DNA of 64,000 nt from an uncultured Bacillota bacterium (GCA_947165005.1 CAMUYN010000003.1:25584-89583); one strand, 5' to 3'; counted from the stretch's first letter, positions 15,524 through 51,694 are shown. Notes: a model not told the origin generated them from the letters alone. Translations and numbers: made by a program.

Positions 15524-15660
15524 CTACTTAACCTTCCATTATTATATAATATAATTATATAATAAATGTACTATTTTAATCAACAAAAATAGACTATTTT
15601 TTTATAAAAAAGGCATGTTTTTTTTAATATGGTATAATTAAATTGTAGGGAGGTAAAAAA

Positions 15661-16677
15661 ATGAAATATTTAGTAACAGGAGGAGCAGGTTTTATAGGAA
15701 GTAATTACATGCATTATGTTGTTGATAAATACAAAGAAGATTACTTTGTTTGTATTGATGCATTAACTTATGCAGGTAATTATAATAATATAAAAGATCT
15801 AGAAAATAGAGATAATTATAAATTTGTAAATGGTAATATTACTGATAGAGAATATATTTATAATTTATTTGAGAAAGAAAAATTCGATTGTGTAATTAAT
15901 TTTGCAGCAGAATCTCATGTGGATAACTCAATTAAAAATCCAGAAATATTTTTAAAAACTAATATTATTGGAACAGGAGTCTTAATGGATGCATGTATAA
16001 AATACGGTGTATCTAGATATCATCAAGTATCTACCGATGAAGTATATGGTGATTTGCCACTTGATAGACCTGATTTATTATTTACAGAAAAGACACCTAT
16101 TCACACATCTAGCCCTTATTCATCATCTAAGGCAAGTGCAGATTTACTTGTTATGGCATATCATAGGACATATGGTTTACCTGTAACTATTTCTAGATGC
16201 TCTAATAATTATGGACCATATCAATTTCCAGAAAAGCTAATACCAAAAACAATTTCTAAGGCACTAAATAATGAAAAAATACCAGTATATGGTAAAGGTG
16301 AAAATGTAAGAGATTGGATTCATGTAATTGATCATAATATTGGTGTAGACTTAATAGTTCATAATGGTAAAATTGGAGAAGTATATAATCTTGGTGGTCA
16401 TTCTGAAAGAAAAAATATTGAAATAGTAAACATTATTTTAAATCAAATGAATAAACCAACTAGTCTAATCGAATTTGTAGAAGATAGAAAAGGTCATGAT
16501 TTAAGATATGCAATTGATTCTTCTAAAGTAGAAAAAGAACTTGGATGGAAGAGAACATATTTTTTTGAAACAGGTATAAAAGAAACAATTGATTGGTACT
16601 TAAATAATGAAGAATGGATAAAGAATATAGAATCCGGAGAATATAAAAAAGCATATAAAAAAATACTTAAAAATTAA
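15661..16677 (+). CDS. rmlB: dTDP-glucose 4,6-dehydratase (NAD-dependent epimerase/dehydratase family)
   Basis: N-terminal GGAGFIGSNY Rossmann motif, STDEVYGD and YSSSK catalytic motifs, 338 aa. Upstream are an extended -10 (TGGTATAAT at ~15629) and a GGGAGG RBS. Confidence 0.85.
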   Translation: MKYLVTGGAGFIGSNYMHYVVDKYKEDYFVCIDALTYAGNYNNIKDLENRDNYKFVNGNITDREYIYNLFEKEKFDCVINFAAESHVDNSIKNPEIFLKTNIIGTGVLMDACIKYGVSRYHQVSTDEVYGDLPLDRPDLLFTEKTPIHTSSPYSSSKASADLLVMAYHRTYGLPVTISRCSNNYGPYQFPEKLIPKTISKALNNEKIPVYGKGENVRDWIHVIDHNIGVDLIVHNGKIGEVYNLGGHSERKNIEIVNIILNQMNKPTSLIEFVEDRKGHDLRYAIDSSKVEKELGWKRTYFFETGIKETIDWYLNNEEWIKNIESGEYKKAYKKILKN

Positions 16678-16693
16678 TTTAAGTATTTTTTTA

Positions 16694-16882
16694 TTATTCA
16701 TCTTTATCATCATCAAAATAGTAATCATCATCCTCTAAATCTTCTTCCTCAAAATTCCATGAATCATAATTACCCTTTTTCATTTCATCTTTCTGTTCTT
16801 CTGTTAATTCATTATTATCATTCATAAAAGAAAATAAACCAAATTTTTGATTATCTTTGTTTTTATCATTTTTATCAAACAT
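16694..16882 (-). CDS. Small highly acidic hypothetical protein (62 aa)
   Basis: ORF only; tightly spaced downstream of the deaminase gene on the same strand. Confidence 0.3.
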   Translation of the reverse strand: MFDKNDKNKDNQKFGLFSFMNDNNELTEEQKDEMKKGNYDSWNFEEEDLEDDDYYFDDDKDE

Positions 16883-34427: not shown

Positions 34428-35566
34428 TTTAAATCCTCTTTCTTTTGTTCTTTTTCAGCCTTTTTTTCAGCTTCTTCTTTTTCTAGATAAGCTCTAGAAA
34501 TAGTTAATTTATATAATGTATCTTGTTTTAATATTATAAAATAACTCTTTTCATCAGGTATTACTTCATAATATATAATTGGTTCTTTTGTAAGTTCATT
34601 AACATCTAATAATTCTTCAACAGACATAACTCTAACTTTATTTTTATAAATAGATTCATCAATACTTGGTTGACTACTAGTTATTATTAGACGATCATAA
34701 TTCTTTAAAATACCATCTACTGTTCTTCTATAAATATCATTTTTCTTTCTAGTTAATAATAATACTAGCGCAAATAATATTACTGATATAGAACAAAGTA
34801 CTATACCTAGATAAAATAGACTCTTATGAGCAATAATATTTTCATCAATAGGAATATTAAAGTTATTTGCAAGTTCACTAGTATTAATAGAAATATCTAC
34901 TGTATTCTTTGTTAAAGGGATTGTCATTGTTAAAGTACTAGATTTAGCAGGTATTTCTTTACTTCCATAAGATGCTTTACGATAAATATTCATTGTTAAT
35001 ATTACACTACTATCTACATCTAATGAATACTTTTCTTTAAATGAACTAACATATGAATTATATTTTCCATAATCAATAGTTACGCTTTCATTAATATCAA
35101 ATCCACTATCTTTTCCTTCTTCTTTCTTAGTATCGATTAATACTTCGTCTTTAGAATAAAGAATCTTTGAACTATCATTCTTATCTGTTACTAATGTTTT
35201 ACAATCTACTGAATATTCATATTCATAATCTACTATATTAGAAAATTTATTTTCATAGATAAAATTTACATCAAATGTATTTATTAAACTAGCTATATAG
35301 TTATTTGCTTCACTATCGCCTTTTCTTAAGAATTTGTTAGAGTAAAAATCATTATCTTTTAAATGTACAGTATAATCTACAGTACCATTTTCACTATTAG
35401 CAATTGCAGTAATCTTTCCAATAGATGCAAAGATTAATACTCCACCTAATAATAATAAAACTAATAGTCCTATGAATATATAGTTTTTAGCCCTTTTTTT
35501 ACTTGACAAATCTTTTATATAATATAATTTGCCTTTATCCTTATTTTCATATTTTATTTCTTTCAT
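34424..35566 (-). CDS. Bitopic membrane protein, possible accessory or anchor protein of the TasA-like fibre locus
   Basis: TM helix at aa ~30-50, a second hydrophobic segment near aa 250-275, and a charged C-terminal coiled-coil tail. Overlaps the sipW-like gene by 4 nt. Confidence 0.45.
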   Translation of the reverse strand: MKEIKYENKDKGKLYYIKDLSSKKRAKNYIFIGLLVLLLLGGVLIFASIGKITAIANSENGTVDYTVHLKDNDFYSNKFLRKGDSEANNYIASLINTFDVNFIYENKFSNIVDYEYEYSVDCKTLVTDKNDSSKILYSKDEVLIDTKKEEGKDSGFDINESVTIDYGKYNSYVSSFKEKYSLDVDSSVILTMNIYRKASYGSKEIPAKSSTLTMTIPLTKNTVDISINTSELANNFNIPIDENIIAHKSLFYLGIVLCSISVILFALVLLLTRKKNDIYRRTVDGILKNYDRLIITSSQPSIDESIYKNKVRVMSVEELLDVNELTKEPIIYYEVIPDEKSYFIILKQDTLYKLTISRAYLEKEEAEKKAEKEQKKEDLN

Positions 35567-36717
35567 TTTAATTTACTCCCTTCAACAAATTCATATAACC
35601 ATATAGATGGTAATCCAACTAAAGGTATTTTATGATTAGTAATACCAACTATATTTCCTTTTGTTACTACCCAATTATCTTCATCTTTGTTATTATCACC
35701 TTTTGTTTTATAAATAGTATCTCCATTCTTATCTTTAGATATTTGTGATACCCTGTGGACAATAATCTTATTTTGCATTCTAAATACTAATATTGAACCA
35801 ACTTTAATTTGCTTCAATTCATCCTCATTTAATTTCTTTACTATAACTACATCTCCAACAAACAATTCCTTTTCCATTGATCCAGAACCAATTGTTAAGA
35901 AGAAATATTTAAATATTCCACTAGTTAATGCTATTAAAACAAGTAGGAATGCTATTAATGTTATACTTACTATTCTATTCGTTTGCTTCTTCATAAAAGT
36001 ATCAACTTTGATATTTTCTCTGAGTAATTTTCTAGTAACAAAATAAATAATAACCGGATATACTAAGGCAATTACTGCTTGTAAATATTTATTAAAATCT
36101 GGAATAATTGGAATAATGAATACTAATAGTGATGTTATGCATAAATAAATAATATTTGCAAGTATACCAAATCTTTTCATCCAATAAGTTAATAATAAAT
36201 TCTTAGATATACTTGGAATCAATATTAAACATATTGCTTCTAATGCTACTCTAGAATTAGTTATATCATATTTAAATATATTTGCTGAAGTATCAATTAA
36301 TACAAATACTATAAAAGTTAAAACAAAGAATACTTTTCTCTTTTCACCTTTTATTAAGAATTCATGCCTTAATACTTCTCCAGTAGTTATTATCATAGCA
36401 AATGGCAAAATATTCATTAATAATGTCATTAAATTTAAACTATATCCACTTTTTAAGAAACCAATAAAAATACCTGCAACATATATAAATATTTCATATA
36501 TCAAACTAAATATAATTGCAACTAAGATTCCATCTTTTTTAAATCTATGTCTATCTTCTTCATAACCTAGGACTAATGTGGAAATAAAAAACATAACTAT
36601 TATTGCCATAGCAATAATATAGTTATCCGCTTCTAAGAATAATAAATTTACTAAAAACAACACTATCATGAATATTTCTAAAATCAAAAGTTTTTTTTCT
36701 GATTTTTTGAATTTCAT
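35563..36717 (-). CDS. sipW: SipW-type (archaeal/ER-type) signal peptidase I fused to an N-terminal ~270-aa polytopic membrane domain
   Basis: C-terminal TIGSGSMEKELFVGDVVIVKK...ILVFRMQNKIIVHRVSQ...YKTKGDNNKDED matches the SGSMEP...GD...HRV...TKGDNN signature of SipW-class peptidases. Preceded by ~8 predicted TM helices. Confidence 0.7.
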   Translation of the reverse strand: MKFKKSEKKLLILEIFMIVLFLVNLLFLEADNYIIAMAIIVMFFISTLVLGYEEDRHRFKKDGILVAIIFSLIYEIFIYVAGIFIGFLKSGYSLNLMTLLMNILPFAMIITTGEVLRHEFLIKGEKRKVFFVLTFIVFVLIDTSANIFKYDITNSRVALEAICLILIPSISKNLLLTYWMKRFGILANIIYLCITSLLVFIIPIIPDFNKYLQAVIALVYPVIIYFVTRKLLRENIKVDTFMKKQTNRIVSITLIAFLLVLIALTSGIFKYFFLTIGSGSMEKELFVGDVVIVKKLNEDELKQIKVGSILVFRMQNKIIVHRVSQISKDKNGDTIYKTKGDNNKDEDNWVVTKGNIVGITNHKIPLVGLPSIWLYEFVEGSKLK

Positions 36718-36823: not shown

Positions 36824-37444
36824 TTATTGTTGTGTATATGTAATTGAAATTGTATCTGGATTAACAGTTACAGGTGCATTTGGTAATTGTGATGCTGTCA
36901 TGTTCTTATCTAATACTGCTACTACCCAAACTTGTTTACTTGCACCAGCAGCTAATGTATCATCAGCAGCAAGTCTAGTTGTTCCTGCTGCGTTAGTGTA
37001 AATACCATATGTAATTTTTCCACATACAGTAGTTTCTGATGATCCACCCTTTGTACAAGAAATATCTGGTACATTGATACTTGTTATTTTAGCAGCATAA
37101 CTACCTGCATTACGGATATAGAATGTATATGTTATTCTATCTCCTGGTGTTTTAAATGTTCCATCCCAAGTAAAACTATCAGTTTTTAATGTTCCTGTTC
37201 CTGTAGCTGTTACAGTTAAACTGTTATCATTTGATAATGTTGGTGTTATAGATACACCTGATGTTCCTGCTGCATTTCCTCCATTTGTTGATGTAAAAAA
37301 TATGTTCCAATTTGATGCTTGTACTTCCGCAGTACCGTTAATATTTAATGTTGCACTAAATGTAGCAAATGCTACTCCTATACTTACTACAGCAAGCACA
37401 AGTGCAATTACTATAGAAATTGTTGTTCCTTTTCTTCTACCCAT
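36824..37444 (-). CDS. TasA/camelysin-like secreted protein, SipW-cognate signal peptide class (paralog 1)
   Basis: N-terminus MGRRKGTTISIVIALVLAVVSIGVAFATFSATLNINGTAEV matches the SipW-cognate pattern (GxAFAxFS). Conserved WNIFF, TPGDRITYTFYIRNAG, C...C and YGIYT blocks are shared with the four other paralogs. Confidence 0.55.
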   Translation of the reverse strand: MGRRKGTTISIVIALVLAVVSIGVAFATFSATLNINGTAEVQASNWNIFFTSTNGGNAAGTSGVSITPTLSNDNSLTVTATGTGTLKTDSFTWDGTFKTPGDRITYTFYIRNAGSYAAKITSINVPDISCTKGGSSETTVCGKITYGIYTNAAGTTRLAADDTLAAGASKQVWVVAVLDKNMTASQLPNAPVTVNPDTISITYTQQ

Positions 37445-37458
37445 ATATTTCTCCTATA

Positions 37459-38082
37459 TTAATTTTGATCGTAATAAACTGAAACTGCTGGTGCAGTTAC
37501 TGTTACTGCTTGAGTTGGTAAATCTGATCCATTTGTTGCAAAGTTATCTAGTAACATAACTTTAACCCAATATTGTGCAGAACTATTAGAATTTAATGGG
37601 TCGTCAGCAGTTACTGCTTGAGTACATGCTTCATTCTTATATATACCATATGTAACATGTGAATTACAGAATGTCTGTGCACTTGTTGTATCAGCATATG
37701 TACATGTTACATTTGGTGATAATGTTGAACGAACTTTTGCATTAAATGATCCTGTATTTCTTGCATAGAAAGTATAAATTACATAATCTCCTGGCGCAGT
37801 TAATGTTGCCGCCCATGAAAAATTATCTGCAGATAAACTTGCTAATGTTGATGATGCAGATCCATGTTCTGTGATATTTGCTGCTGGTAATGTCCCTGCT
37901 GATGATGGTTTTGACCCATTTGATGCACTTGCAAAGAATATATTCCAGCTAGATTGCTGTACTGTTGCAGTACCGTTAATATTTAACTGTGTACTAAATG
38001 CCGCAAACGCTACCCCCAAACTTATTACCGCTAATATTAGTGCTACTACTATAGCTACTATTGTTCCTCTCTTTTTTTCCAT
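37459..38082 (-). CDS. TasA/camelysin-like secreted protein (paralog 2)
   Basis: Same signal-peptide class and conserved blocks (TAPGDYVIYTFYARNTG). Own promoter TTGACA-17-TATATT at ~38095-38125. Confidence 0.55.
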   Translation of the reverse strand: MEKKRGTIVAIVVALILAVISLGVAFAAFSTQLNINGTATVQQSSWNIFFASASNGSKPSSAGTLPAANITEHGSASSTLASLSADNFSWAATLTAPGDYVIYTFYARNTGSFNAKVRSTLSPNVTCTYADTTSAQTFCNSHVTYGIYKNEACTQAVTADDPLNSNSSAQYWVKVMLLDNFATNGSDLPTQAVTVTAPAVSVYYDQN

Positions 38083-38193: not shown

Positions 38194-38847
38194 TTAATTT
38201 TGACCAAATGATACAGTTGCTGATATTTGATTAGTTTTTACTGTTTCTGTTGGTAAATCTGAACCGTCTTGAGCCCAGTTTGTATCAAGCCATGCTATTA
38301 AATAATAAGCTTTAGTTGTTCCTGCAGGAATAGTTTGATCTACTGCTACAGCACTAGAACCAGCAGTATCATTATATAATCCATAATGAATATGTCCACA
38401 TACTCTTGTTTCAGCCTCTTGTTGTGCAGTACCTGTTTTTATTGTACATGTTGGAATTGGCATATTAACATCAGTTACTTTTGCGTTAAAAGTACCACCA
38501 TTTTTTACATATACAGTATACATTACTCTATCACCAGGTGTTCTAAAAATAGCATCCCAAGTAAGTGTAGTTGCAACCATACTACCAGTTGCAGTAACAG
38601 TTGGTGTTACATTAGGATCAATATTTGATATTTGAATATTTCCTGATGGAATAGTTGTACTTTCTGATGGTTTTTCCCCATCATTAGCTGTTGTAAAATA
38701 CATATCCCATTTTATAGTATCTACTGTTGCAGTACCATTGATATTTAACGTTCCTGAAAATACAGCAAATGCTACTCCTAAACTTATTATAGATAATACT
38801 ACTGTTATAATAATCGCAATAACTTGTCTCTTTTTTTCTTTTTCCAT
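38194..38847 (-). CDS. TasA/camelysin-like secreted protein (paralog 3)
   Basis: Same family (TPGDRVMYTVYVKNGG). Own promoter TTGACT-17-TATATT and terminator hairpin at ~38150-38180. Confidence 0.55.
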   Translation of the reverse strand: MEKEKKRQVIAIIITVVLSIISLGVAFAVFSGTLNINGTATVDTIKWDMYFTTANDGEKPSESTTIPSGNIQISNIDPNVTPTVTATGSMVATTLTWDAIFRTPGDRVMYTVYVKNGGTFNAKVTDVNMPIPTCTIKTGTAQQEAETRVCGHIHYGLYNDTAGSSAVAVDQTIPAGTTKAYYLIAWLDTNWAQDGSDLPTETVKTNQISATVSFGQN

Positions 38848-38958: not shown

Positions 38959-39657
38959 TTAGTTGTTGCTAACAGCACTACTAGATTGTGTATATGCAAG
39001 TGTTGTTGTAATTGTTGCTGTTGTAACATCTACTGGTGCTAAACTTTGACCATCATTTCCACCATAACTATTATCTAACCAAGCAACTAGATAATATTGA
39101 TTAGATGAATGAGCATTTAAAGATGTACCTGTTTGTAATGGTGTTGTTCCTGCTGAATCTGTGTATATTCCATAATGGATATGTGCACATACTGATTCTT
39201 CAGCGCCAGTTTGTCCACCTTCAGCTGTACAAGTGAAATTAGTTACTCCTACTTGAGTAAGACCTGAAGTTCCAGTTGAATCTAAAGTGGCATTAAAATC
39301 ACCATCATTAACAACATAGAATGCATAAGTCACTCTATCACCTGCTGTTTTAAATGAAGCACTCCATTCAATTGTAGTTGCTGATGTAATATTTCCAGTT
39401 CCACTTGCAGTAGTTGTAAATCCAGCCCCATTTGATGGTGTAATAGAAGCAATAGGTGTACTTGATGATGGTTTACTACTAGATTGTGAACTATATGCTG
39501 AATTTGAGAAATAAATATCCCATTTAGTTGCTTGAACTGTTGCAGTACCATTGATATTTAATGTTGTACTGAATGCAGCGAATGCAACACCTAAACTGAT
39601 TACAGCTATTACTAATGCAGCTACTACTGCTATAGTTACTCCTCTCTTTTTTTCCAT
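38959..39657 (-). CDS. TasA/camelysin-like secreted protein (paralog 4)
   Basis: Start trimmed to the Met preceded by GGAGGA (MEKKRGVTIAVVAALVIAVISLGVAFAAFSTT). Promoter TTGACA-17-TATACT at ~39690-39720; terminator hairpin at ~38905-38935. Confidence 0.55.
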   Translation of the reverse strand: MEKKRGVTIAVVAALVIAVISLGVAFAAFSTTLNINGTATVQATKWDIYFSNSAYSSQSSSKPSSSTPIASITPSNGAGFTTTASGTGNITSATTIEWSASFKTAGDRVTYAFYVVNDGDFNATLDSTGTSGLTQVGVTNFTCTAEGGQTGAEESVCAHIHYGIYTDSAGTTPLQTGTSLNAHSSNQYYLVAWLDNSYGGNDGQSLAPVDVTTATITTTLAYTQSSSAVSNN

Positions 39658-39731
39658 ATTTTTACTTCCTCCTCTATTATAAAGTATAGAACAATATAGA
39701 TATATTGTCAATTATTTTAAATAAAAAAATA

Positions 39732-40199: not shown

Positions 40200-41417
40200 C
40201 TAGAAAATAACTTTCATAAATACTTTTTTGCCTTTTTGTAAGATTATATATCCATCTTGTAAATCTTCTTCAGTTATTACTTTATCAATATCATTTAATT
40301 TTTCTAAATTTAAAGAAAGTCCATTTTGATCAATTAATCTTCTTCCTTCTGATTTAGATGGAACTAATCCTACTTTTACGAGTAAATCTAGTATATTAAT
40401 ACCTAAATCTTCTTTTGATAAATTTATTGTTTCTATATCTTTAGGTAATCCAGTTAATGAAACAGACAAGAAACTTTCTTCTGCACGTTTAGTATCTTCT
40501 TCTCCATAAAATATTTTAGTTATTTCTCTAGCAGCAAAAAGTTTAGCTTCTCTTGGATTATTTTTAATATCTAATTTAGCTATTTCATCAAGTGGTACTC
40601 TTGTATTATTAACCAATAATAATTCTATCATTTCATCAGGTTGATTCATTATTTCTTCAAACATTTTATTTGCTCCAGTACCTAAGAATACTCCTGTTCC
40701 TCTTGATTTAGACATTAATGTTCCATCTATTGGATTTTCCATTAAATTATTAGCTACTACAAATTTATCTTTATCTCTATATTTCTTTAATAAATCTCTT
40801 CCTACTAAAGCATTGAATATTTGATCTGTTCCACACATTTCAACATCTATATCAAGTGCAACACTATCATATCCTTGTAACATTGGATAAATAAATTCAT
40901 GCATAAATATTGGTTTATTCTCTTCCATCCTCTTTTGGAACATATCTCTTACTAATAATTGCCCTACAGTGGCATGTGATAGTAAATCTATCATATCCTC
41001 TGAAGTTAATTTATCCATCCATTCACTGTTAAATACTACATGTGTAGGATTTTCTTTATCTTCAGTATTGATAAGAGGTTTAATACTTTCTATCCAATGT
41101 TCCGCATTTTTTTTTGCTTCTTCTCTTGTTAATCTAGCTCTTGCAGATGTTCTATCTGTTGGATCACCAATACAAGCAGTAAAATCTCCAAATAATATAT
41201 ACACTTCATGTCCTAATTTTCTAAATTCATCCAACAACATAAAGTTTTTTGCATGGCTTAAATGTAATGATGTTCCTGTAGGATCTGCACCTATATAGAA
41301 TTTTAATTTTCTATCTAATAATGCTTCCTTAAATTCTTCTCTTGATGGAAGTATTTGTCTTACTATTCCCCTATCAAGTATTTCATCAATTCTTTTTGAT
41401 TTTTCTTCTCTTGTCAT
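40200..41417 (-). CDS. tyrS: Tyrosyl-tRNA synthetase paralog (divergent; HLSH and LMSKS variants of the class I motifs; C-terminal S4 domain)
   Basis: GADPTGTSLHLSHAKNF, CIGDPTDRTS, LMSKSRGTGVFL and a C-terminal S4-like RRLIDQNGLSLN; 405 aa. Preceded by a T-box leader with a UAC specifier. Confidence 0.75.
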   Translation of the reverse strand: MTREEKSKRIDEILDRGIVRQILPSREEFKEALLDRKLKFYIGADPTGTSLHLSHAKNFMLLDEFRKLGHEVYILFGDFTACIGDPTDRTSARARLTREEAKKNAEHWIESIKPLINTEDKENPTHVVFNSEWMDKLTSEDMIDLLSHATVGQLLVRDMFQKRMEENKPIFMHEFIYPMLQGYDSVALDIDVEMCGTDQIFNALVGRDLLKKYRDKDKFVVANNLMENPIDGTLMSKSRGTGVFLGTGANKMFEEIMNQPDEMIELLLVNNTRVPLDEIAKLDIKNNPREAKLFAAREITKIFYGEEDTKRAEESFLSVSLTGLPKDIETINLSKEDLGINILDLLVKVGLVPSKSEGRRLIDQNGLSLNLEKLNDIDKVITEEDLQDGYIILQKGKKVFMKVIF

Positions 41418-41679: not shown

Positions 41680-42975
41680 TTAATTATTATTCTTAACTAA
41701 AACTTTCATGTAATTCTTTTTTCCTTTTCTTACTACAAATCCACCGTCTGTAATATCAGAAGGAGTAACCATATTTTGTTCTTGTTGCATTCTAACGTTG
41801 TTTAAATATATACCCCCTTGTTGCAATAATCTTCTAACTTCTGATTTTGATTTAGCCATTTTTATTAATACCATTAATTCTTCAATAGGAATACCTTCTC
41901 CCATAACATCTGCACTTATTCCACATTGAGGCATGTTTTCTGAATTACCAGCATTTGAGAATACTTCTTCACTTGCTTTCTTTACTTTTAAAGCTTCTTC
42001 TTCTCCATGTACTAATTTTGTTACTTCAAAAGCCATTATTTTTTTAGCATTTCTTATATCTTCAGTACACATTCTCTTTATATCTTCCATTTCATAATTA
42101 CTAAAGAATGATAATAATCTTTCTACGTCTTCATCATATGAATTCATAAACATTTGATAGAAATCATAAACAGTTGTTTTTTCTCTTGAAACCCATAATG
42201 TTCCACTAGCTGTTTTACCCATTTTTTCTCCATCTGCCTTTATTAATAACGGACATGTTAATGTTTGTAATTGTCTATCTTCTAAACCATTTGCAAAATC
42301 CATTTTTCTAGCCAATTCTACACCTGCTATCATATTTGCCCATTGGTCAGAACCACCAACTTCTAATACGCACCCATATTTTTCATTTAAATATACAAAG
42401 TCATAAGCTTGCATTAACATATATCCCATTTCTAAGAATGTTAATCCACCAGATTCTAATCTGTTTTTATAGCAATCAGTAGCTAACATTTTATTAACAT
42501 TAAAATGTACTCCAACTTTTCTCATAAAATCAACATATGATTCTGGATTAATCCAATCTGCGTTATCTAATATTAGTGCAGGATTATCTCCATCAACATC
42601 TACGAATCTCTTAACTAATTCTTTCACTTCTGCTTTATTGTATGCTACTTGTTCTTTAGTTAGCATCTTTCTCATATCTCTTTTTCCAGTTGGATCACCA
42701 ATTAAAGCTGTAGCCCCTCCGATTACAATTATTGGATGATGTCCCTTCTCTTGTAATCTTCTTACCATTGTAAGCGCAAAGAAATGTCCTATATGTAAAC
42801 TATCCGCTGTTGGATCTATACCTATATAAAACACTTTTGGTTCACTATCGTTTAACATTTCTTCAATTACTTTTTCATTTGTAGCTTGATATACATATCC
42901 TCTTTCTCTTAGTATATCAAAAGGTTTTTTTTCCATATTAACTCCCCTCTCAAATAACATTGCATATATTAACAT
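41680..42975 (-). CDS. tyrS: Tyrosyl-tRNA synthetase (canonical)
   Basis: IDPTADSLHIGH, GGATALIGDPTGK, KMGKT and a C-terminal S4 domain (RRLLQQGGIYLNNVRM); 431 aa (about 416 aa from the better start MEKKPFD). Confidence 0.9.
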   Translation of the reverse strand: MLIYAMLFERGVNMEKKPFDILRERGYVYQATNEKVIEEMLNDSEPKVFYIGIDPTADSLHIGHFFALTMVRRLQEKGHHPIIVIGGATALIGDPTGKRDMRKMLTKEQVAYNKAEVKELVKRFVDVDGDNPALILDNADWINPESYVDFMRKVGVHFNVNKMLATDCYKNRLESGGLTFLEMGYMLMQAYDFVYLNEKYGCVLEVGGSDQWANMIAGVELARKMDFANGLEDRQLQTLTCPLLIKADGEKMGKTASGTLWVSREKTTVYDFYQMFMNSYDEDVERLLSFFSNYEMEDIKRMCTEDIRNAKKIMAFEVTKLVHGEEEALKVKKASEEVFSNAGNSENMPQCGISADVMGEGIPIEELMVLIKMAKSKSEVRRLLQQGGIYLNNVRMQQEQNMVTPSDITDGGFVVRKGKKNYMKVLVKNNN

Positions 42976-42990
42976 TTTTATATCAAAATG

Positions 42991-43758
42991 TCAATTTTTT
43001 TGATATTTAACTATATTAAAAACTACCTTATATAAATCTTCATAACTTGTTTGAATGTCAGATAATGAAATTAATTCTTCTGGTGTATTATCATCTATTA
43101 TTGCAATTTTTTTTCCTTTCTTTAATCCAAACATTTCTATATCATTATAATCATTACCAAAAACATAAATATCATCATTAATAAAAATATTATCTATTAT
43201 GAATTCTATTGCAGTTCTTTTATTTATACCCTTTGAATTAATTATAATATAATCTTCGGACTTAATAGCATTAATATTATTATTATTACATTTATCTATA
43301 AAAGCATTAACACATTCATTACTTTTAAATTTAATTGTGATTTGACAAATATCATTTACCAATACTTCATTATAAAAATCTTTAGAATTACTAATTCTTT
43401 TTGACACATAAAGTAAAGTTTTATCTCCATACTGTATATAATTATTTGAATTAGATGGATTAAATAATATATATTCTACTTCCTTATAATCGATATATTT
43501 TAATATTTTTTTTTCATTTTGAGTTAAAAATCTTTGATAAATTATTTCATTATTTTTTGTTACTATTTTTGAACCATTCTCGATAATAATTGGTAATTCA
43601 TTTAAATAATTATTTACGATTTCTAAACTTCTTAAATATCCTCTGCCTGTACAAAAAATAAAAGGAATCTTATTTTTTTGTAAAAAAAGTAATAATTTAT
43701 CATTACTTTTTTTATTTTTATAAATTACACCATCTATATCAAAAAACATTAATTTCAT
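42991..43758 (-). CDS. HAD-IIB (Cof-type) phosphatase
   Basis: FFDIDGVI motif I, GNDYNDIEMF motif IV, cap domain between. Confidence 0.75.
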   Translation of the reverse strand: MKLMFFDIDGVIYKNKKSNDKLLLFLQKNKIPFIFCTGRGYLRSLEIVNNYLNELPIIIENGSKIVTKNNEIIYQRFLTQNEKKILKYIDYKEVEYILFNPSNSNNYIQYGDKTLLYVSKRISNSKDFYNEVLVNDICQITIKFKSNECVNAFIDKCNNNNINAIKSEDYIIINSKGINKRTAIEFIIDNIFINDDIYVFGNDYNDIEMFGLKKGKKIAIIDDNTPEELISLSDIQTSYEDLYKVVFNIVKYQKN

Positions 43759-44771
43759 TTTTTGACCTCAAATACTGTTTTAATATTATCCTTAATATTT
43801 TCGTAATTTTTTATATATTCTACTGATGACAAAAAATCAATTCTATAAGAAATCAAATCGTTAACTTGAATGTCTTTTTTTTCTAATAAATCTAATGCCT
43901 TCTTAAAGTCATTATGTATATTACAGTATGAGTTTATTCCTTTTAAAGTGCCTTGCTTATAAAATAGTGTCCTAATATTAATATTTGCAAGATAATTAAA
44001 TGCATATACTCCATAACAAAGAATTAAACAATTATTATTGCCTACTTCTATTGAAGTGTTTAAAGTGTCAGATTGTTTCCCTCCAACTGTTTCTAATATA
44101 ACATCAAATTTTATATCACATTTTTTTATTTCATCAAACAGCAAATAATTAATACCTAAATTCTTAATCTTATCTCTATGTTTTGCAAACAATATAATAT
44201 TCTTATCACTATACATTGATTTTAATATTCTATAACAAATTATTCCTAAAGGCCCATCTCCTATAACTGCTATATTTTCTATATTATTTTTTTTGATTTC
44301 TTTTATATAATTAATTCCATGTAATGCTACTGCAATATCATCAATAAATATTGCATCTTCATAGTTTATGTTATCTGATAACTTATAAACACAATTTTTA
44401 GGAACATAAACTACTTCCGAATAACCACCATCTATATCTCTTCCTACAATTTTAATATCATTACATAAACTAAAGCTTTCACATGGAGCATGTTCAAGAG
44501 CAACATCAAAAGGATTTACTACTACTTTATCTCCAATACTAAAACCTTCGCAATTCTCTCCAAAATTGCTTATAACTCCCATAATTTCATGTCCTAATAT
44601 ATTTGTATTAATATAGTTTTTATTTGGAGTTTGTTTTAAAAACTTTAGAATATCACTACTACACAAGCCCAGATATCTAGTTTCTATTTCTATTTCATCA
44701 TTTTTACATTTTCTCTTTTCAAATGTTTCAAAAAAGAAATCATTTTTTTCTTTATAAAAAATCCTTTGCAT
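43755..44771 (-). CDS. Zinc-dependent medium-chain dehydrogenase/reductase (sorbitol/threonine dehydrogenase-like)
   Basis: GLCSSD...GHEIMG catalytic zinc motif, VIGDGPLG Rossmann motif; 338 aa. Confidence 0.75.
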   Translation of the reverse strand: MQRIFYKEKNDFFFETFEKRKCKNDEIEIETRYLGLCSSDILKFLKQTPNKNYINTNILGHEIMGVISNFGENCEGFSIGDKVVVNPFDVALEHAPCESFSLCNDIKIVGRDIDGGYSEVVYVPKNCVYKLSDNINYEDAIFIDDIAVALHGINYIKEIKKNNIENIAVIGDGPLGIICYRILKSMYSDKNIILFAKHRDKIKNLGINYLLFDEIKKCDIKFDVILETVGGKQSDTLNTSIEVGNNNCLILCYGVYAFNYLANINIRTLFYKQGTLKGINSYCNIHNDFKKALDLLEKKDIQVNDLISYRIDFLSSVEYIKNYENIKDNIKTVFEVKK

Positions 44772-45906
44772 GCTTTTCTCCTAATAATTTATAAATTTTG
44801 TTACTATTTCCGCCTGTATGTTTTATATATTTGATTAACATATCTAATCCTTGCCCTGTTTTAATTGCTTCTTTTGCCTTTACATAGCCTTCTTTATAAT
44901 TTGTAACCATTCTAGACAAATACAATATATTAGCACAATTAATACATACTATATCTTCATGTGCTTCTAAGCCATTACCTGCTAAAACGCTTAAGATATA
45001 TTTTATGTTTTCCTCTTTAGTTTTCCCTTGTGCTATATCTCTAGAAGTATATTTTGGCAAACCCAGTTCTTTTATCGGATTAAAAATTAATAAATTACCA
45101 TTATTTATTCCGTCTTTTGTACCAATTATCTTTGTCTCACCATATACTCCCATTTCATCAATAAAATGAATTCCATCATCTGTGCTAGAAACAACTAAAA
45201 CATTTTGGTTGCCAAATTTCTTTAAAACATCTAATGATAATTCTACATTCGGATGTGCTAAACCATATAAAAGTGAATCTGTTTTTACTGGACAAATTAA
45301 TGCTGCCAATCCAAAACTTAAAACATGTGGAGCAAAAAAATTACCACCATATATTTTGTCAAATTTAGGAATAATATCCTCTATGCAAAAGAATGCAAAA
45401 CCACAGTCATTTAATATATCTATACTCTCATCTAATGTAATATCTTTATTAGCGCCTACTATTTCCATAAAATCAGCGGACCCAGTAACTGACGAAGTTG
45501 ATTTAGATCCTGGTTTAACAACATACGCCCCCATACTTGAAGCAAGTAAAGCACTTGCTGTTGAAATATTAATTGTTTTAACCCCTTTTTTACCACTACC
45601 TGCTAACGTTACTATTTCATGATTATCTATTTGTATTTTTTTTCTTTCAATAGGATTATAATTATCCAAACTAAATGCTTCTTTTAGTAAAGCTACTACT
45701 TCATCAGATGTTGGATTCTTAGTCATAATTGCTGTCAAAAAGGATCCTAACATAGTATTTCTAATATTATCATTTTTAACATTTAAAATCTCAGAGAATG
45801 CAGACCTAAGTAAATCTATATCATATTTTGAATTTACATTTAATCTATATAATAATTCTTTTAAATTTTTATATTCATTCATTATCCCACGCCCCACATA
45901 TATCAA
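44752..45906 (-). CDS. TrpD-family (glycosyltransferase family 3) phosphoribosyltransferase-like protein
   Basis: LAGSGKKGVKTINISTASALLASSMGAYVVKPGSKSTSSVTGSADFMEIVG aligns with the GTGGDG..NIST.....AA.G..V.KHGNR..SS..GSAD.LE motif block of anthranilate phosphoribosyltransferase. Confidence 0.65.
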   Translation of the reverse strand: MIYVGRGIMNEYKNLKELLYRLNVNSKYDIDLLRSAFSEILNVKNDNIRNTMLGSFLTAIMTKNPTSDEVVALLKEAFSLDNYNPIERKKIQIDNHEIVTLAGSGKKGVKTINISTASALLASSMGAYVVKPGSKSTSSVTGSADFMEIVGANKDITLDESIDILNDCGFAFFCIEDIIPKFDKIYGGNFFAPHVLSFGLAALICPVKTDSLLYGLAHPNVELSLDVLKKFGNQNVLVVSSTDDGIHFIDEMGVYGETKIIGTKDGINNGNLLIFNPIKELGLPKYTSRDIAQGKTKEENIKYILSVLAGNGLEAHEDIVCINCANILYLSRMVTNYKEGYVKAKEAIKTGQGLDMLIKYIKHTGGNSNKIYKLLGEKHAKDFL

Positions 45907-46897
45907 TTAATACTTTTGCATATTTTTTCTTGCTTTCTAGCCATTTATCACCCTTTTCTTCACAAATTTTATATAATTCTTCTAATTCTTCTGGAGAATA
46001 ATATGATACTGCACTCATCATTTGAAAAATTGTTGAATCCTCTGGTTTTTCATATTCATCTTTACTATTAACAACAAGATCATATATCTTATCAGGAGTC
46101 ATGTCCACAGAAATAGATGAATCAGGAATACTCTTACTCATCTTTGGATAACCATTTAACCCCTTTATTACTCTAGAATATAATGCTCCGATTGTCATAT
46201 CAAGATTCATGCGTTCTACAACTTTTTGGGCAATTCTAACATATAAATGTTCTTCTAAACCTAACATAACTAAAACGTTTTCATAATTATCTACATATCC
46301 CAAATGGATGAAATCTGCAACCATCAATAAAATTGCTTGTTTAACTTTAAAGTCAATTCCCTTATATATATTTTTGCTCTTATATAATTCGGATAAATCT
46401 TCTTCCGCTTCTAAAAAGTCTTCATCTGTTAAGCAATTTGAAATCAAATAAGCTGTTTTTAATATTTCAGGATGATCAATTTGTGTTCTTAATACTCCTT
46501 TTGTTTCATCAAAGCCTAACTTTTTTATAAACTTAGTATATTTATCAGCACGTTCTTTTAGCACTTCTAAAGACTGATTTCTAGCATTATAGGAATCTAA
46601 ATCTCCTAAAACAAACTGAACTTCAAATCCTGCTTTTTGTAAAAAGATTGCTCTTAATATTTGAGATAATGTTCCCATATGTGGTGTTCCACTCAAACCT
46701 ATTCCAGTAGTAATAATCTGTTTTTTGTCATTAACACCTTTAACAAATTTTTCTGCCTTATAATGGCATAACCATTTTTCCTTCATAACATCTCTACTGA
46801 TATTACTTAAACTAAAATCAATAGGTTTAAAATCCATTGCATTATAGCCATACTTGTTAATAACACTTCTGTAATATTCATCATCAAATTTTATCAT
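45875..46897 (-). CDS. Class Ic aminoacyl-tRNA-synthetase-like paralog (TrpRS/TyrRS fold) with degenerate HIGH region (GTPHMGTL), intact KMSKS and a ~55-aa N-terminal extension
   Basis: TTGIGLSGTPHMGTLSQ (a TrpRS-style HIGH region), GDLDSY, KMSKSIPDS; 340 aa. Start overlaps the previous gene, indicating an operon. Confidence 0.6.
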   Translation of the reverse strand: MIKFDDEYYRSVINKYGYNAMDFKPIDFSLSNISRDVMKEKWLCHYKAEKFVKGVNDKKQIITTGIGLSGTPHMGTLSQILRAIFLQKAGFEVQFVLGDLDSYNARNQSLEVLKERADKYTKFIKKLGFDETKGVLRTQIDHPEILKTAYLISNCLTDEDFLEAEEDLSELYKSKNIYKGIDFKVKQAILLMVADFIHLGYVDNYENVLVMLGLEEHLYVRIAQKVVERMNLDMTIGALYSRVIKGLNGYPKMSKSIPDSSISVDMTPDKIYDLVVNSKDEYEKPEDSTIFQMMSAVSYYSPEELEELYKICEEKGDKWLESKKKYAKVLIDICGAWDNE

Positions 46898-46959
46898 TTT
46901 TCCCTCCTTATTTATTGCTAAATTATTTACACTTAATATAGTTGCTTTTTTTTAATTTA

Positions 46960-47110
46960 TAGCAACAAAAAAACGGTGCTTAAACACTATATGTTAAAGT
47001 TACCGTTTTCATTTTTATTGGGGCAAAAAAGCATATTAAATTGTATTTAATATTTAAATTTTCAAAAACTATTGTTCTTTCTACCAATACTTTTATATTA
47101 TTCATAAATC
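46960..47110 (-). promoter_or_regulatory. Leader region of the aaRS-paralog operon with 8-bp hairpin, U-tract and possible 41-codon leader ORF (candidate attenuator)
   Basis: AAAACGGU-23nt-UACCGUUUU followed by U-rich sequence, about 90 nt upstream of the ATG. Small ORF MNNIKVLVERTIVFENLNIKYNLICFFAPIKMKTVTLTYSV with GAGGGG RBS ends inside the hairpin. No T-box consensus found. Confidence 0.3.
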
Positions 47111-47250
47111 TCACCCCTCATAAATAATTTAATTTATTTTATCTCCATATATATCAATTGTCAATAACATTCAAAGAATATATATAAATTTTTTTCAGTT
47201 GCAAAAAAATATAAAAAGTTGTATAATAAGCACTTAAAAGGAGAAATTAT

Positions 47251-47682
47251 ATGAATACTAATGAAAAGAACAAAAAAATAAATATTATTATATTACCACC
47301 ATATATGAGAAAAATTGATAATAATAAATTAATACTTTTATACACAAAAATAAAACCTATTATATCAATTCAAGAAAAAAAATATAAGTTAAATACTTTC
47401 ACATTGGAGCAATTATTAAAAAATTATAATTGGAATAGTGAAGAAAACAAGACAGAATTAATTGATAGTAACAGCATTGAAATAATCACCGATTTCCTAT
47501 GTTTACATACACACAAAGAGCAAGCATCTTTAGAAGAAATATTATCACAAATCCCAGATGATATAACTAATTTTGCTAACGCTTTTGAAGTGATTGAAGC
47601 ACCTGAAAAAAGAGAGAACTTGATTGTACATGCTAAAGGATTACATTTATCAAAAATCAGAATATATAAAATCAATGAATAA
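47251..47682 (+). CDS. Hypothetical protein (143 aa)
   Basis: Strong promoter TTGCAA-17-TATAAT and AAAGGAG RBS. Followed by a bidirectional terminator (GAAGC-UUAU-GCUUC) at 47690-47718. Confidence 0.55.
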   Translation: MNTNEKNKKINIIILPPYMRKIDNNKLILLYTKIKPIISIQEKKYKLNTFTLEQLLKNYNWNSEENKTELIDSNSIEIITDFLCLHTHKEQASLEEILSQIPDDITNFANAFEVIEAPEKRENLIVHAKGLHLSKIRIYKINE

Positions 47683-47698: not shown

Positions 47699-48701
<1,003 letters not shown>

Positions 48702-48754: not shown

Positions 48755-49807
48755 TTAATTACAATAAGTAGCTGGTGAATGATTGAGTGGATCTATCCCA
48801 CAATTTGTGCCACTTAAGCCAGAAACGTCTACGCTTTTAGTCTCTGTAAGATTAATATAAGCTGCTACATCATAACCAACAAAATAATTACATGAGCCAA
48901 TTGGATCTGATGAAACCTCTGTTTGGTATTCCCATCCAAGTGTTTGACATAGTGTTTCTAAATCTGATGTAGTACTTGAAGTCCCAATGCAATATTCTGT
49001 GGAATTATAAACTAAACATGTAAATGATTCACCACCCGAACTTTTAATATAAGCATCTTGAGCAGATAAATCTGATAAACTATTAACCCAATCTGCACTG
49101 GTACCTTGTTCAGTATCTATTTTTCCATAATAAGTTATATTGGCTGGTGAATTACCACCGTTACCACCATTTCCAGCATTATTAGATATTGCTGAACTTG
49201 TTTGTTGGAATGTTACAGTTGCTGATATTGCATCTGTTGTTAAATCTGATTGTACTAATCCTGATCCATCATTTCCTCCATATGAAGATGATAATTCAGC
49301 TATTAAATAAAATACTTCTGTATCTCCTGCATCCACTGTGAATGATGTTGTTAATGGTGTTGTTCCTGTTGAGTCTGTCCATAAATTATAACTTATATAT
49401 TGACATGCATTTTGTGGATCTGTTGTACATTGAACTGCTGGTTTAACTATATTTGATACTTGTGCATTATAGTTTCCACCATTCTTTACATAGATAGTAT
49501 ATACTATTCTATCTCCTGGTGATTTAAAACTTGCATTCCATGTATATGTTGTTGCTACATATGATGCCGATATATTTTCTGCTGTTGTTCCTCCTGTAGA
49601 TATATTCGCTGCTGGTACTGTTGTTGATTGTGTTGGTTTTGGCCCATCATCTTGTGATGTAAAGAATATATCCCAAGTTGTTGATTCTACTGCTGCAGTA
49701 CCATTTATATTTAGCGTTGTACTAAATGCTGCAAATGCTACTCCTAAACTTACTACAGCAATAATTAAAACTATCACTATTGGTATTGTGATTTTTCTAT
49801 TATCCAT
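48755..49807 (-). CDS. TasA/camelysin-like secreted protein (paralog 5) with a ~140-aa Cys-rich C-terminal extension
   Basis: N-terminus MDNRKITIPIVIVLIIAVVSLGVAFAAFSTTLNINGTAAV and SPGDRIVYTIYVKNGG blocks match the other paralogs. A GNGGNGGN linker follows, then a domain with 8 Cys (CLVYNSTEYC...CQTLGWEY...CNYF...CGIDPLNHSPATYCN). Confidence 0.55.
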   Translation of the reverse strand: MDNRKITIPIVIVLIIAVVSLGVAFAAFSTTLNINGTAAVESTTWDIFFTSQDDGPKPTQSTTVPAANISTGGTTAENISASYVATTYTWNASFKSPGDRIVYTIYVKNGGNYNAQVSNIVKPAVQCTTDPQNACQYISYNLWTDSTGTTPLTTSFTVDAGDTEVFYLIAELSSSYGGNDGSGLVQSDLTTDAISATVTFQQTSSAISNNAGNGGNGGNSPANITYYGKIDTEQGTSADWVNSLSDLSAQDAYIKSSGGESFTCLVYNSTEYCIGTSSTTSDLETLCQTLGWEYQTEVSSDPIGSCNYFVGYDVAAYINLTETKSVDVSGLSGTNCGIDPLNHSPATYCN

Positions 49808-51292: not shown

Positions 51293-51694
51293 TTACTCTT
51301 CTTCTAATTTTTTTAATACTTCTCTAACTACTTTAGCAGTTTCTGCTTTTACTTTTTTAGCAGTACTTTCAAGTACTGGTGTTCCTTTTTCTTTAGCATA
51401 CTCTACTAATTCAGTAGCTTTTTTCTTTAATGCTTCACCTTTTTCAATAGCAATGGATTTAACTTTTTCTTTATCTAAATCTTTAATACCATCTTTTATT
51501 TCTTTTACTTTCTTTTCAATATTAGCTTTAACTTCATCTTCATCAATATCTTTTAATTTATCACAAAGTTCACTAATTTTTTCTAACAAATCTTTTCTTA
51601 ATTCTTCACCTTTTTTAGGAGCAAACAATAATGCTATTCCGGCACCAATAGCTCCACCTAAAAGTAAACCACCAATACCACTTCTTTTACTCAT
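51293..51694 (-). CDS. YtxH-like (DUF948) membrane-anchored stress protein
   Basis: N-terminal GIGGLLLGGAIGAGIALLFAPKKGEELRKDL, then K/E-rich helices typical of YtxH. Confidence 0.6.
   Translation of the reverse strand: MSKRSGIGGLLLGGAIGAGIALLFAPKKGEELRKDLLEKISELCDKLKDIDEDEVKANIEKKVKEIKDGIKDLDKEKVKSIAIEKGEALKKKATELVEYAKEKGTPVLESTAKKVKAETAKVVREVLKKLEEE

Follow-up and report, generated by a model that had tools for sequence, protein, structure and literature searches.

A predicted tyrocitabine-like gene cluster with linked tyrosyl-tRNA synthetase genes in an uncultured Bacillota bacterium

Overview

We examined a minus-strand operon within a 64-kb stretch of DNA from an uncultured Bacillota bacterium (GCA_947165005.1, CAMUYN010000003.1:25584-89583). 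The whole stretch of 64,000 nucleotides is referred to as the window, and all window coordinates are counted from its first letter. The operon encodes a paralog of the aminoacyl-tRNA synthetases (the aaRS-like protein), a TrpD-like phosphoribosyltransferase, a zinc-type medium-chain dehydrogenase/reductase (MDR) and a Cof-type HAD phosphatase, and it is followed on the same strand by genes for tyrosyl-tRNA synthetase (TyrRS). We consider it likely that the operon is a biosynthetic gene cluster similar to the tyrocitabine (tyb) cluster of Lactobacillus iners, that its product would be an antibiotic resembling tyrosyl-AMP, and that TyrRS would be the target of this antibiotic, with the linked TyrRS genes protecting the producer.

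The first-pass annotation of this DNA had described four genes with overlapping start and stop codons directly upstream of tyrS on the same strand, and had read them as a possible small-molecule pathway. The open reading frames (ORFs) are where it placed them, and Pfam and NCBIfam both upheld its four family assignments. Three of its pathway steps (phosphoribosylation, redox chemistry and activation) match the published logic of the tyb pathway, and the window proteins are homologous to the tyb enzymes; its small-molecule reading is thus supported. The fourth, dephosphorylation, has no tyb counterpart and was deduced from the presence of the HAD gene. The tyrocitabine class and its wide distribution have already been published, and related clusters in archaea and candidate phyla were noted by the original paper, according to a review (PMC13235161). 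The locus described here is a distinct and apparently commoner architecture, not something categorically new.

The operon resembles the tyrocitabine cluster

The primary report of the tyb cluster of L. iners is reportedly that of Patel et al. in Cell in 2022. A locus of L. iners DSM 13335 in our sample (L078) contains, in order, genes for a major facilitator superfamily (MFS) protein, an aaRS-like protein, a TrpD-like protein, a single-module nonribosomal peptide synthetase (NRPS; A-T-C) and an MDR dehydrogenase. Because this gene order matches the description of TybA through TybE and the species agrees, we equate L078 with tyb, an identification made by species, gene order and domain content. 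We take its aaRS-like protein, TrpD-like protein and alcohol dehydrogenase (ADH) to be TybB, TybC and TybE.

The chemistry of tyb is taken from the review (PMC13235161). TybC glycosylates L-tyrosine with phosphoribosyl pyrophosphate (PRPP), and an Amadori rearrangement follows. TybE converts the TybC product by reduction to a linear form. TybB, which resembles TyrRS, attaches AMP to the carboxylate of tyrosine, and this yields the active compound, an inhibitor of translation (PMC13235161). TybD (A-PCP-C) acylates the AMP ribose to produce a prodrug and TybA exports it; with respect to making the active compound, both proteins are described as accessory (PMC13235161).

The window proteins and those of L078 are 40.8% (aaRS-like), 27.3% (TrpD-like) and 29.1% (dehydrogenase) identical. 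The L078 aaRS-like gene was found by profile-derived patterns, and tblastn with the window protein matches it with an E value of 6e-74. The two aaRS-like proteins have the signatures PHMGT, KMSKS, LMxADF and GLEEH in common, and the two transferases have GSGKK in common.

The aaRS-like protein belongs to a separate family

Families were assigned by Pfam and NCBIfam scans of the window proteins, using the curated equivalog cutoffs of NCBIfam (TIGR00233 trpS, 176.75; TIGR00234 tyrS, 113.8; TIGR01245 trpD, 199.05). Each operon protein scores below the curated cutoff of the housekeeping family that it resembles.

The aaRS-like gene (45875..46897, minus strand) encodes 340 amino acids. The protein matches PF00579 with 57 bits, and it scores 68.1 against the trpS model and 30.8 against the tyrS model. 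With such scores we reject its identity as a housekeeping tryptophanyl-tRNA synthetase (TrpRS) or TyrRS. Its aaRS domain begins at about residue 59, with PHMGT at residues 72-76 and KMSKS at residues 252-256, in agreement with the first-pass description of a class Ic synthetase-like protein with a degenerate HIGH region and an intact KMSKS. In a word-indexed search we found 481 relatives, and the best 120 of these, at least 50% identical, carry the names 'hypothetical' or 'tryptophanyl-tRNA synthetase'. When 1.84 billion representatives were searched exhaustively with a profile, 329 matched at E<=1e-3, of which 119 reached E<=1e-30. Because there were only 329 matches at E<=1e-3, canonical TrpRS and TyrRS are evidently not retrieved by the profile. 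Judged by these searches, the aaRS-like proteins are a distinct, sharply separate and widespread family, and the possibility that the 340-residue protein would group with TrpRS can be set aside, since it falls far below every TrpRS and TyrRS cutoff.

Many residues are invariant in the family alignment, including G65, G67, S69, G70, P72, H73, G75 and T76, a GDLD-YN-R block, D195 and F196, and G213, E216 and H217. PKMSK (P251-K255) is invariant and S256 is nearly so. The second His of HIGH is an invariant Thr. We considered a cyclodipeptide synthase and rejected it: such enzymes are expected to have a class Ic fold without HIGH and KMSKS, and here KMSKS and the first His of HIGH are invariant. 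By sequence profile, TrpRS of A. pernix (E 1e-13) and TyrRS of M. jannaschii are the closest proteins of solved structure. An AlphaFold (AF2) model of the protein (pLDDT 85, pTM 0.87) superposes over essentially its full length on archaeal TrpRS and TyrRS and on bacterial TyrRS, with TM scores of 0.63-0.73. In a profile alignment to M. jannaschii TyrRS, D195 pairs with D158, E216 with Q173 and F183 with Y151, and T63 replaces Y32. This pairing indicates that the amino-acid pocket is probably of the Tyr/Trp type and somewhat enlarged.

The partner enzymes

The TrpD-like gene (44752..45882, minus strand; 376 amino acids) is open to 45906, and translation probably begins at the ATG at 45882, the start called in locus L092, which is 97% identical. 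The protein matches PF00591 with 120 bits and scores 156.5 against the trpD model. GSGKKG stands in place of GTGGD, and KPGS in place of KHGN. The score below cutoff and the two altered motifs led us to reject anthranilate phosphoribosyltransferase (TrpD), and the loss of the canonical motifs also removes the first-pass concern that this might be the genome's ordinary trpD. The protein is predicted to be a TybC-like 'Amadori synthase' that acts on PRPP and L-tyrosine.

The MDR gene (43755..44771, minus strand; 338 amino acids) encodes a protein with an ADH_N match of 61.5 bits and with GHE and GDGPLG motifs; two of the four structural-zinc cysteines are left. By homology, this zinc-type protein is a TybE-like dehydrogenase/reductase. 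The HAD gene (42991..43758, minus strand; 255 amino acids) matches Hydrolase_3 (Cof-type HAD-IIB) with 81 bits, with intact DIDG and GNDYND motifs, and its product is predicted to remove the PRPP-derived 5-phosphate. The four ORFs are packed tightly, with successive overlaps of 8, 20 and 4 nucleotides.

Might these genes simply serve housekeeping Trp and Tyr metabolism, as a genuine TrpRS and TrpD? The best named matches are indeed the trpS and trpD models, and the best structural match is A. pernix TrpRS. However, both scores fall short of the cutoffs, the second His of HIGH is replaced throughout the family, GTGGD and KHGN of TrpD are gone, there are no further trp genes adjacent to the operon, and canonical synthetases are not retrieved with the family. 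We give this explanation practically no credence. For annotation, the 340- and 376-residue proteins should not be called TrpRS and TrpD.

The gene neighborhood is conserved across bacteria and archaea

Dozens of unrelated genomes have this same set of genes, and therefore its assembly is not due to chance. We scanned species-representative genomes for the aaRS-like gene and analyzed the best 80 of 121 confirmed loci. They come from C. beijerinckii, L. iners and metagenome-assembled genomes (MAGs) of Bacilli and Clostridia; from Alphaproteobacteria, Gammaproteobacteria, Thermodesulfobacteriota, Acidobacteriota, Bacteroidota and Myxococcota; from the candidate-phyla bacteria Saccharibacteria, Kaiserbacteria and Magasanikbacteria; from MAGs of Woesearchaeota, Aenigmatarchaeota and Methanosarcinales; and from about 45 species of Streptomyces, Kitasatospora and Streptacidiphilus. 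Conservation of the neighborhood, which the first-pass annotation had proposed as a check, was counted on the 59 loci whose flanks extend for 6 kb or more in both directions. Of these, 58/59 have a TrpD-like gene (adjacent), 56/59 an MDR dehydrogenase gene and 53/59 a TyrRS gene no more than 6 kb from the aaRS-like gene; these counts are not independent, as many of the loci are from related Streptomyces, and the taxonomic spread is still wide. Over 79 loci, a HAD gene of some subfamily is near the aaRS-like gene in 53 and a linked TyrRS is found in 66.

Some of the enzymes are fused. There are TrpD-like::aaRS-like fusions in P0194 and P0224 and a HAD::aaRS-like fusion in P0092, and these fusions argue for functional coupling of the pathway enzymes. 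Adjacency in 58 of the 59 loci together with occasional fusion is also what might be seen if the aaRS paralog were a non-catalytic regulatory subunit of the phosphoribosyltransferase, in the manner of HisZ and HisG. Against such an arrangement, the ATP-binding signatures PHxGT and KMSKS are invariant in the family and TybB adds AMP (PMC13235161), and we think a purely regulatory role very unlikely.

Other genes vary from locus to locus. They encode GT2 and GT4 glycosyltransferases, radical SAM enzymes, a methyltransferase, a sulfotransferase with TauE, NRPS or AMP-binding enzymes, exporters (MacB, C39-ABC or MFS), HIT and PNP proteins and a nucleotidyltransferase. Natural-product cluster families are expected to combine a constant core with tailoring and export genes that differ between members, and we interpret the loci as such a family.

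Several variants were seen in this survey. P0137 and P0174 have an N-terminal part of about 570 residues before the aaRS-like domain; it has no Pfam match, contains a motif (LLDDNIMSGMT) like that of type I phosphoribosyltransferases, and might substitute for the TrpD-like enzyme without being its ortholog. In L003 (9021-9992), L007, L008 and L094 (1079-2798), whose aaRS-like proteins are 80-87% identical to that of the window, a sulfotransferase gene is immediately upstream in place of the window leader, joined in L094 by a gene for a TauE-family transporter, which suggests that these relatives make a sulfated variant of the product. The version found in Streptomyces (L036, Streptomyces sp. 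A5-4, 6163-15246, and about 45 other actinomycete loci) is conserved, with genes in the order HAD, MDR, TrpD-like, radical SAM, aaRS-like, methyltransferase, 410-residue ORF, GT2 and TyrRS. No NCBIfam model names any of these genes specifically. The 410-residue ORF has no Pfam match and is paired by tblastn with the GT4 of C. beijerinckii, and the linked TyrRS is about 470-490 residues long, with an N-terminal extension.

Proposed pathway and target

By analogy with tyb, synthesis would take place in four steps. The TrpD-fold enzyme would join PRPP to the alpha-amine of L-tyrosine, with an ensuing Amadori rearrangement, and the MDR dehydrogenase would reduce the Amadori product to a linear polyol. 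The HAD phosphatase, which is not in L. iners, would then strip off the sugar phosphate. Lastly, the class Ic paralog would adenylate the tyrosine carboxylate and release the product rather than charge tRNA. The result would be a look-alike of tyrosyl-AMP that blocks translation. Homology and gene linkage are what we observe directly; the chemistry of the first, second and fourth steps is carried over from the literature by homology, and we infer the HAD step, the TyrRS target and the immunity role.

The 340-residue protein is thus predicted to be an 'abortive' synthetase that releases its adenylate, with a modified tyrosine as the predicted substrate. The first-pass annotation had pointed to amide-ligase or resistance functions known for stand-alone aaRS paralogs. 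We favor the adenylate-releasing function instead, and the linked tyrS copies are likelier resistance genes. Three further ideas were dropped: that the locus is the SB-219383 cluster, that it modifies tRNA-Tyr at queuosine (by analogy with GluQRS and with the GT2 and GT4 enzymes), and that it is a pyrrolysine-like system for a non-canonical amino acid. None of the three is needed to explain the data, given the invariance of the ATP motifs, the occurrence of NRPS and exporter genes at related loci and the tyb chemistry in the literature. A literature search on TyrRS self-resistance, on clusters with TrpD plus TyrRS and on SB-219383 biosynthesis found nothing relevant.

By the published chemistry the product would be an N-substituted analogue of tyrosyl-AMP, and for this reason we suspect that TyrRS is the target and that the TyrRS genes beside the cluster guard the producer. 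TyrRS is a specific target hypothesis that can be tested cheaply, and the linked TyrRSs are a panel of candidate resistant enzymes. The linkage could also serve as a genome-mining handle for the tyrocitabine class.

Linked TyrRS genes and proposed self-protection

The first TyrRS gene of the window (41680..42936, minus strand; 418 amino acids; TIGR00234, 381 bits) starts 54 nucleotides after the HAD gene on the operon strand. Its probable start is the ATG at 42936, as in L092, and the ORF is open to 42975. A promoter-like site (42994-42966, minus strand) overlaps the end of the HAD gene and could give this gene expression independent of the operon. The first TyrRS is a probable self-protection copy. 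The second TyrRS gene (40200..41417, minus strand; 405 amino acids; TIGR00234, 314 bits) has the motif variants HLSH and LMSKS. It is controlled by a T-box leader (RF00230; 41450..41631, minus strand) that scores 99.2 bits against a gathering score of 93 and whose specifier we read as UAC (Tyr). The second TyrRS is 30% identical to the first and 56-59% identical to the TyrRSs that accompany the same cluster in MAGs of Alphaproteobacteria (L014, L015 and L025). All TyrRSs scanned (the two of the window and those of L001, L005 and L036) score above the tyrS cutoff. The second gene, its T-box and a tyrS pseudogene (see below) were absent from the first-pass annotation and were found here; of the three tyrS genes in the window, two are intact and one has decayed.

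The tyrosine T-box would switch on the second TyrRS when charging of tRNA-Tyr drops. An inhibitor of TyrRS is expected to cause induction of this kind, and tyrosine starvation normally does so too.

In a reverse scan seeded with cluster-linked TyrRS, we used as controls the type-2 tyrS loci (those with Gln at the Q173 position) that have at least 3 kb on both sides. None of these 22 loci (0/22) has an aaRS-like gene nearby, and the linkage of TyrRS to the cluster is therefore specific. One point in favor of a cluster that had merely inserted beside a housekeeping tyrS, with no functional link, is that the downstream tyrS of the window has a normal Tyr T-box, as do housekeeping tyrS genes of Bacillota. 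Such chance or regulatory synteny is contradicted by the recurrence of the linkage (53/59 loci) in several bacterial phyla, in archaea and on a plasmid, by the reverse control, and by flanks that differ between the window and L003, L007 and L009 while both TyrRSs travel with the cluster. We regard it as extremely improbable.

The linked TyrRS genes appear to be mobile together with the cluster. The B. thuringiensis plasmid pBMB172 has genes for aaRS-like, TrpD-like, ADH, HAD and MFS proteins and tyrS between IS6/recombinase genes and IS4, the C. beijerinckii locus has transposase and resolvase genes next downstream, and L089 adjoins conjugation genes. Loci in archaeal MAGs have bacterial-type TyrRSs with S4-like C-termini that are 61-68% identical to the TyrRS of a Bacteroidota locus, in step with the identity of the corresponding aaRS-like proteins (59-68%). 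The cluster and both TyrRSs are in different contexts in the window and in L003, L007 and L009, with no flanking genes in common. The linked TyrRSs fall into at least four clades, indicating repeated recruitment of whatever TyrRS was available. As far as sequence comparison can tell, the linked TyrRSs are extra copies that travel with the cluster, and an additional copy of the target is what is looked for in self-resistance.

In the largest clade of linked TyrRSs, the residue equivalent to Gln173 of B. stearothermophilus TyrRS is Met or Val. Gln173 contacts the alpha-amine of the substrate. A change of Q173 to Met or Val is attractive as a resistance change since the inhibitor would be N-substituted.

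We give an even chance to the fuller proposal that the linked tyrS genes are immunity genes, that TyrRS is the target of the class, that the HAD-plus-TyrRS layout, rather than the L. iners layout with its NRPS for a prodrug, is the commonest in bacteria and archaea, and that in the lineage of the window the Tyr T-box adds an inducible back-up TyrRS while the operon leader might feed back negatively.

Several observations weigh against the interpretation presented here. The 2026 review calls the molecular target of tyrocitabine unknown (PMC13235161). The identity of the window proteins to TybC and TybE is low (27-29%). In the AF2 model of the aaRS-like protein, a helical domain is preserved at the C-terminus and can be superposed on the matching region of archaeal TyrRS and TrpRS; the paralog may thus bind tRNA, and the domain fits poorly with TybB, which is said to have no tRNA-binding domain (PMC13235161). 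There is no global co-phylogeny between aaRS-like proteins and the nearest TyrRS (Spearman 0.04; Mantel 588/2000), which is consistent with partner swapping and with co-transfer only within subgroups. Among metagenome TyrRSs that have the Q173-to-Met/Val change and adequate flanks, the cluster is nearby in 1/6; the change, frequent as it is in linked TyrRSs, is not exclusive to clusters. The tandem TyrRSs of L003 and L004 (in L003 at 14032-15291 and 15581-16825, with a T-box before the second copy) are 99% identical over the 329-residue catalytic domain and 31% identical over the C-terminal tRNA-binding domain, which suggests recent gene conversion or domain swapping; because the catalytic domains are so alike, a difference in dosage or tRNA binding is likelier in this lineage than a resistant active site. 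Lastly, tRNA-Tyr(GTA) genes are directly beside the linked TyrRS in two unrelated loci, L009 (10389-10472) and L019 (8375-8457), and a role in supplying Tyr-tRNA would also fit this arrangement.

Several of these points favor a different division of labor within a tyb-like pathway, in which the linked TyrRSs, some with tRNA-Tyr, would supply Tyr-tRNA or activated tyrosine, or the aaRS-like enzyme would act on tRNA-Tyr. The adjoining tRNA-Tyr genes, the C-terminal domain that resembles the archaeal anticodon-binding domain, and the near-identical catalytic domains in L003 all agree with it. However, the L. iners pathway was reconstituted with no TyrRS or tRNA gene in its cluster (PMC13235161), the recruitment of four unrelated TyrRS clades fits better with a need that any TyrRS can meet than with a specialized partner, and the plasmid cassette pairs tyrS with an exporter. 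We consider a supply role unlikely, and we continue to prefer the interpretation in which the linked TyrRSs confer self-protection.

Two side observations concern TyrRS and tRNA genes. Metagenome loci L099-L102, L107 and L111 encode TyrRS with Met at the Gln173 position and have no tyb-like genes within the available flanks; these may be resistance genes without a cluster, or else a housekeeping variant peculiar to one lineage. Near the Aenigmatarchaeota cluster, ARAGORN predicts an unusual tRNA whose anticodon loop is irregular (L017, 14940-15024).

Promoter and leader of the operon

Upstream of the aaRS-like gene is a promoter-like site (47136..47164, minus strand; TTGACA-17-TAAAAT) with 11 of 12 matches to consensus. 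It is invariant in L092 and L093, and consensus matching is the basis of the call. Between this site and the first gene is a leader of about 240 nucleotides (46898..47135, minus strand) with a small ORF of 41 codons (47105-46980, minus strand) and a terminator-like hairpin with a U-tract (about 47010-46963, minus strand; minimum free energy -45.8 kcal/mol, z = -3.5). This agrees with the first-pass description of a leader with a hairpin and U-tract, a possible 41-codon ORF and no T-box: neither a T-box nor any other Rfam family was found in the leader at E<=1.

Over the promoter, leader and hairpin, L092 and L093 match the window with 97% identity, and the leader sequences available (window, L092 and L093) are too alike for a covariation test. 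The hairpin stems and the U-tract are kept in these relatives. Because their hairpin loop differs by a single-nucleotide indel, the small ORF ends in another frame (50 codons there versus 41 in the window), and the C-terminus of the peptide and a Tyr codon in the loop are not conserved. The leader ORF is therefore present in the window as first described, but its frame is not kept in relatives that are 97% identical, and we reject a Tyr-sensing leader peptide that reads the loop codon. The hairpin is a probable attenuator. A feedback model built on the conserved Tyr21 codon is speculation.

Neighboring genes and other features of the window

Divergent from the operon is an ORF of 143 codons (47251..47682, plus strand) that is 91% identical and syntenic in L092 and L093, the one close relative seen in which it accompanies the operon. 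No Pfam, NCBIfam or PADLOC family matches it, and it might serve the cluster in a regulatory or accessory role. PADLOC gives no meaningful match to a known anti-phage defense system at the operon.

Beyond this ORF is the tyrS pseudogene with a T-box remnant (47699..48657, minus strand). Its coding part (47699-48448) has an in-frame TAA inside HIGH and ends after KEKTP, and the T-box remnant (48482-48657) scores 87.6 bits. After KEKTP, the pseudogene joins the last 10 or so codons and the terminator of ytxH, duplicating the 3' end of that gene. The intact ytxH of the window is at 51293-51694, and in L092 ytxH abuts the 143-codon ORF directly. Since ytxH of L092 occupies the position of the pseudogene, we conclude that about 3.6 kb was inserted in the window.

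Two predicted secreted proteins of 250 amino acids (38959-39711) and 350 amino acids (48755-49807) have a common N-terminus (...VSLGVAFAAFSTTLNINGTA) and match no Pfam family; one of the pair is within the 3.6-kb insertion. A gene with an S26/S24 signal-peptidase-like domain is near them (35563-36717), and the ORFs at 36824-37444, 37459-38082 and 38194-38847 may belong to the same family of secreted proteins. A single ORF of more than 5174 codons (1-15523, minus strand) runs off the start of the window. Its product is rich in Asn, Thr, Gly and Ser, has an N-terminal hydrophobic segment and is probably a giant surface protein.

Comparison with known systems

The window proteins have the same folds as canonical TrpD and archaeal TrpRS and TyrRS. 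They differ from these enzymes in scoring below the cutoffs, in their altered active-site motifs and in their genomic context.

The second TyrRS of the window is like TyrZ of B. subtilis, a second and more selective TyrRS under T-box control (PMC9437257), in that it is divergent and lies behind a tyrosine T-box. In contrast, TyrZ is tied to a MarR regulator and to D-tyrosine selectivity, not to a biosynthetic cluster.

Some antibiotic producers are protected by a duplicate of the target synthetase, and the LeuRS AgnB2 of agrocin 84 is one such self-resistance enzyme. Others are the mupirocin IleRS, the indolmycin TrpRS and the albomycin SerRS (PMC9437257). Like these systems, tyb-like clusters have an extra copy of the proposed target synthetase in or beside the cluster, and it travels on mobile DNA. 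Unlike them, no TyrRS example is listed in a 2022 review of aaRS duplications (PMC9437257), and the extra TyrRS of some tyb-like relatives has a catalytic domain nearly identical to that of its neighbor. If our proposal is true, these would be the first example of target-duplicate self-resistance by TyrRS in the literature that we looked at.

The closest comparison is with tyb. Tyrocitabines are a recently described class of antibiotics from the human microbiome, and the window presents a different and much more widespread cluster layout. The core trio (TyrRS-like adenylating enzyme, TrpD-fold 'Amadori synthase' and MDR reductase) is the same and in the same order, and the predicted type of product, a tyrosine-sugar-AMP nucleotide that would inhibit translation, is also the same. 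The window differs in having neither the TybD NRPS nor the TybA MFS exporter (tblastn of the L078 proteins finds no homologs of either in the 64 kb) and in adding the HAD gene, the TyrRS gene on the same strand, the T-box-controlled second TyrRS gene and the attenuator-like leader. The HAD-plus-TyrRS layout is the commonest in the sample examined. The two loci with NRPS plus MFS genes, L078 and L081 (Olsenella), are among the few that have no linked TyrRS, and L005 carries both an NRPS and a TyrRS. This distribution would fit two alternative routes to self-protection, a split that L005 shows is not absolute: one through a prodrug and its export, as in tyb, and the other through an extra copy of the target, as in the window.

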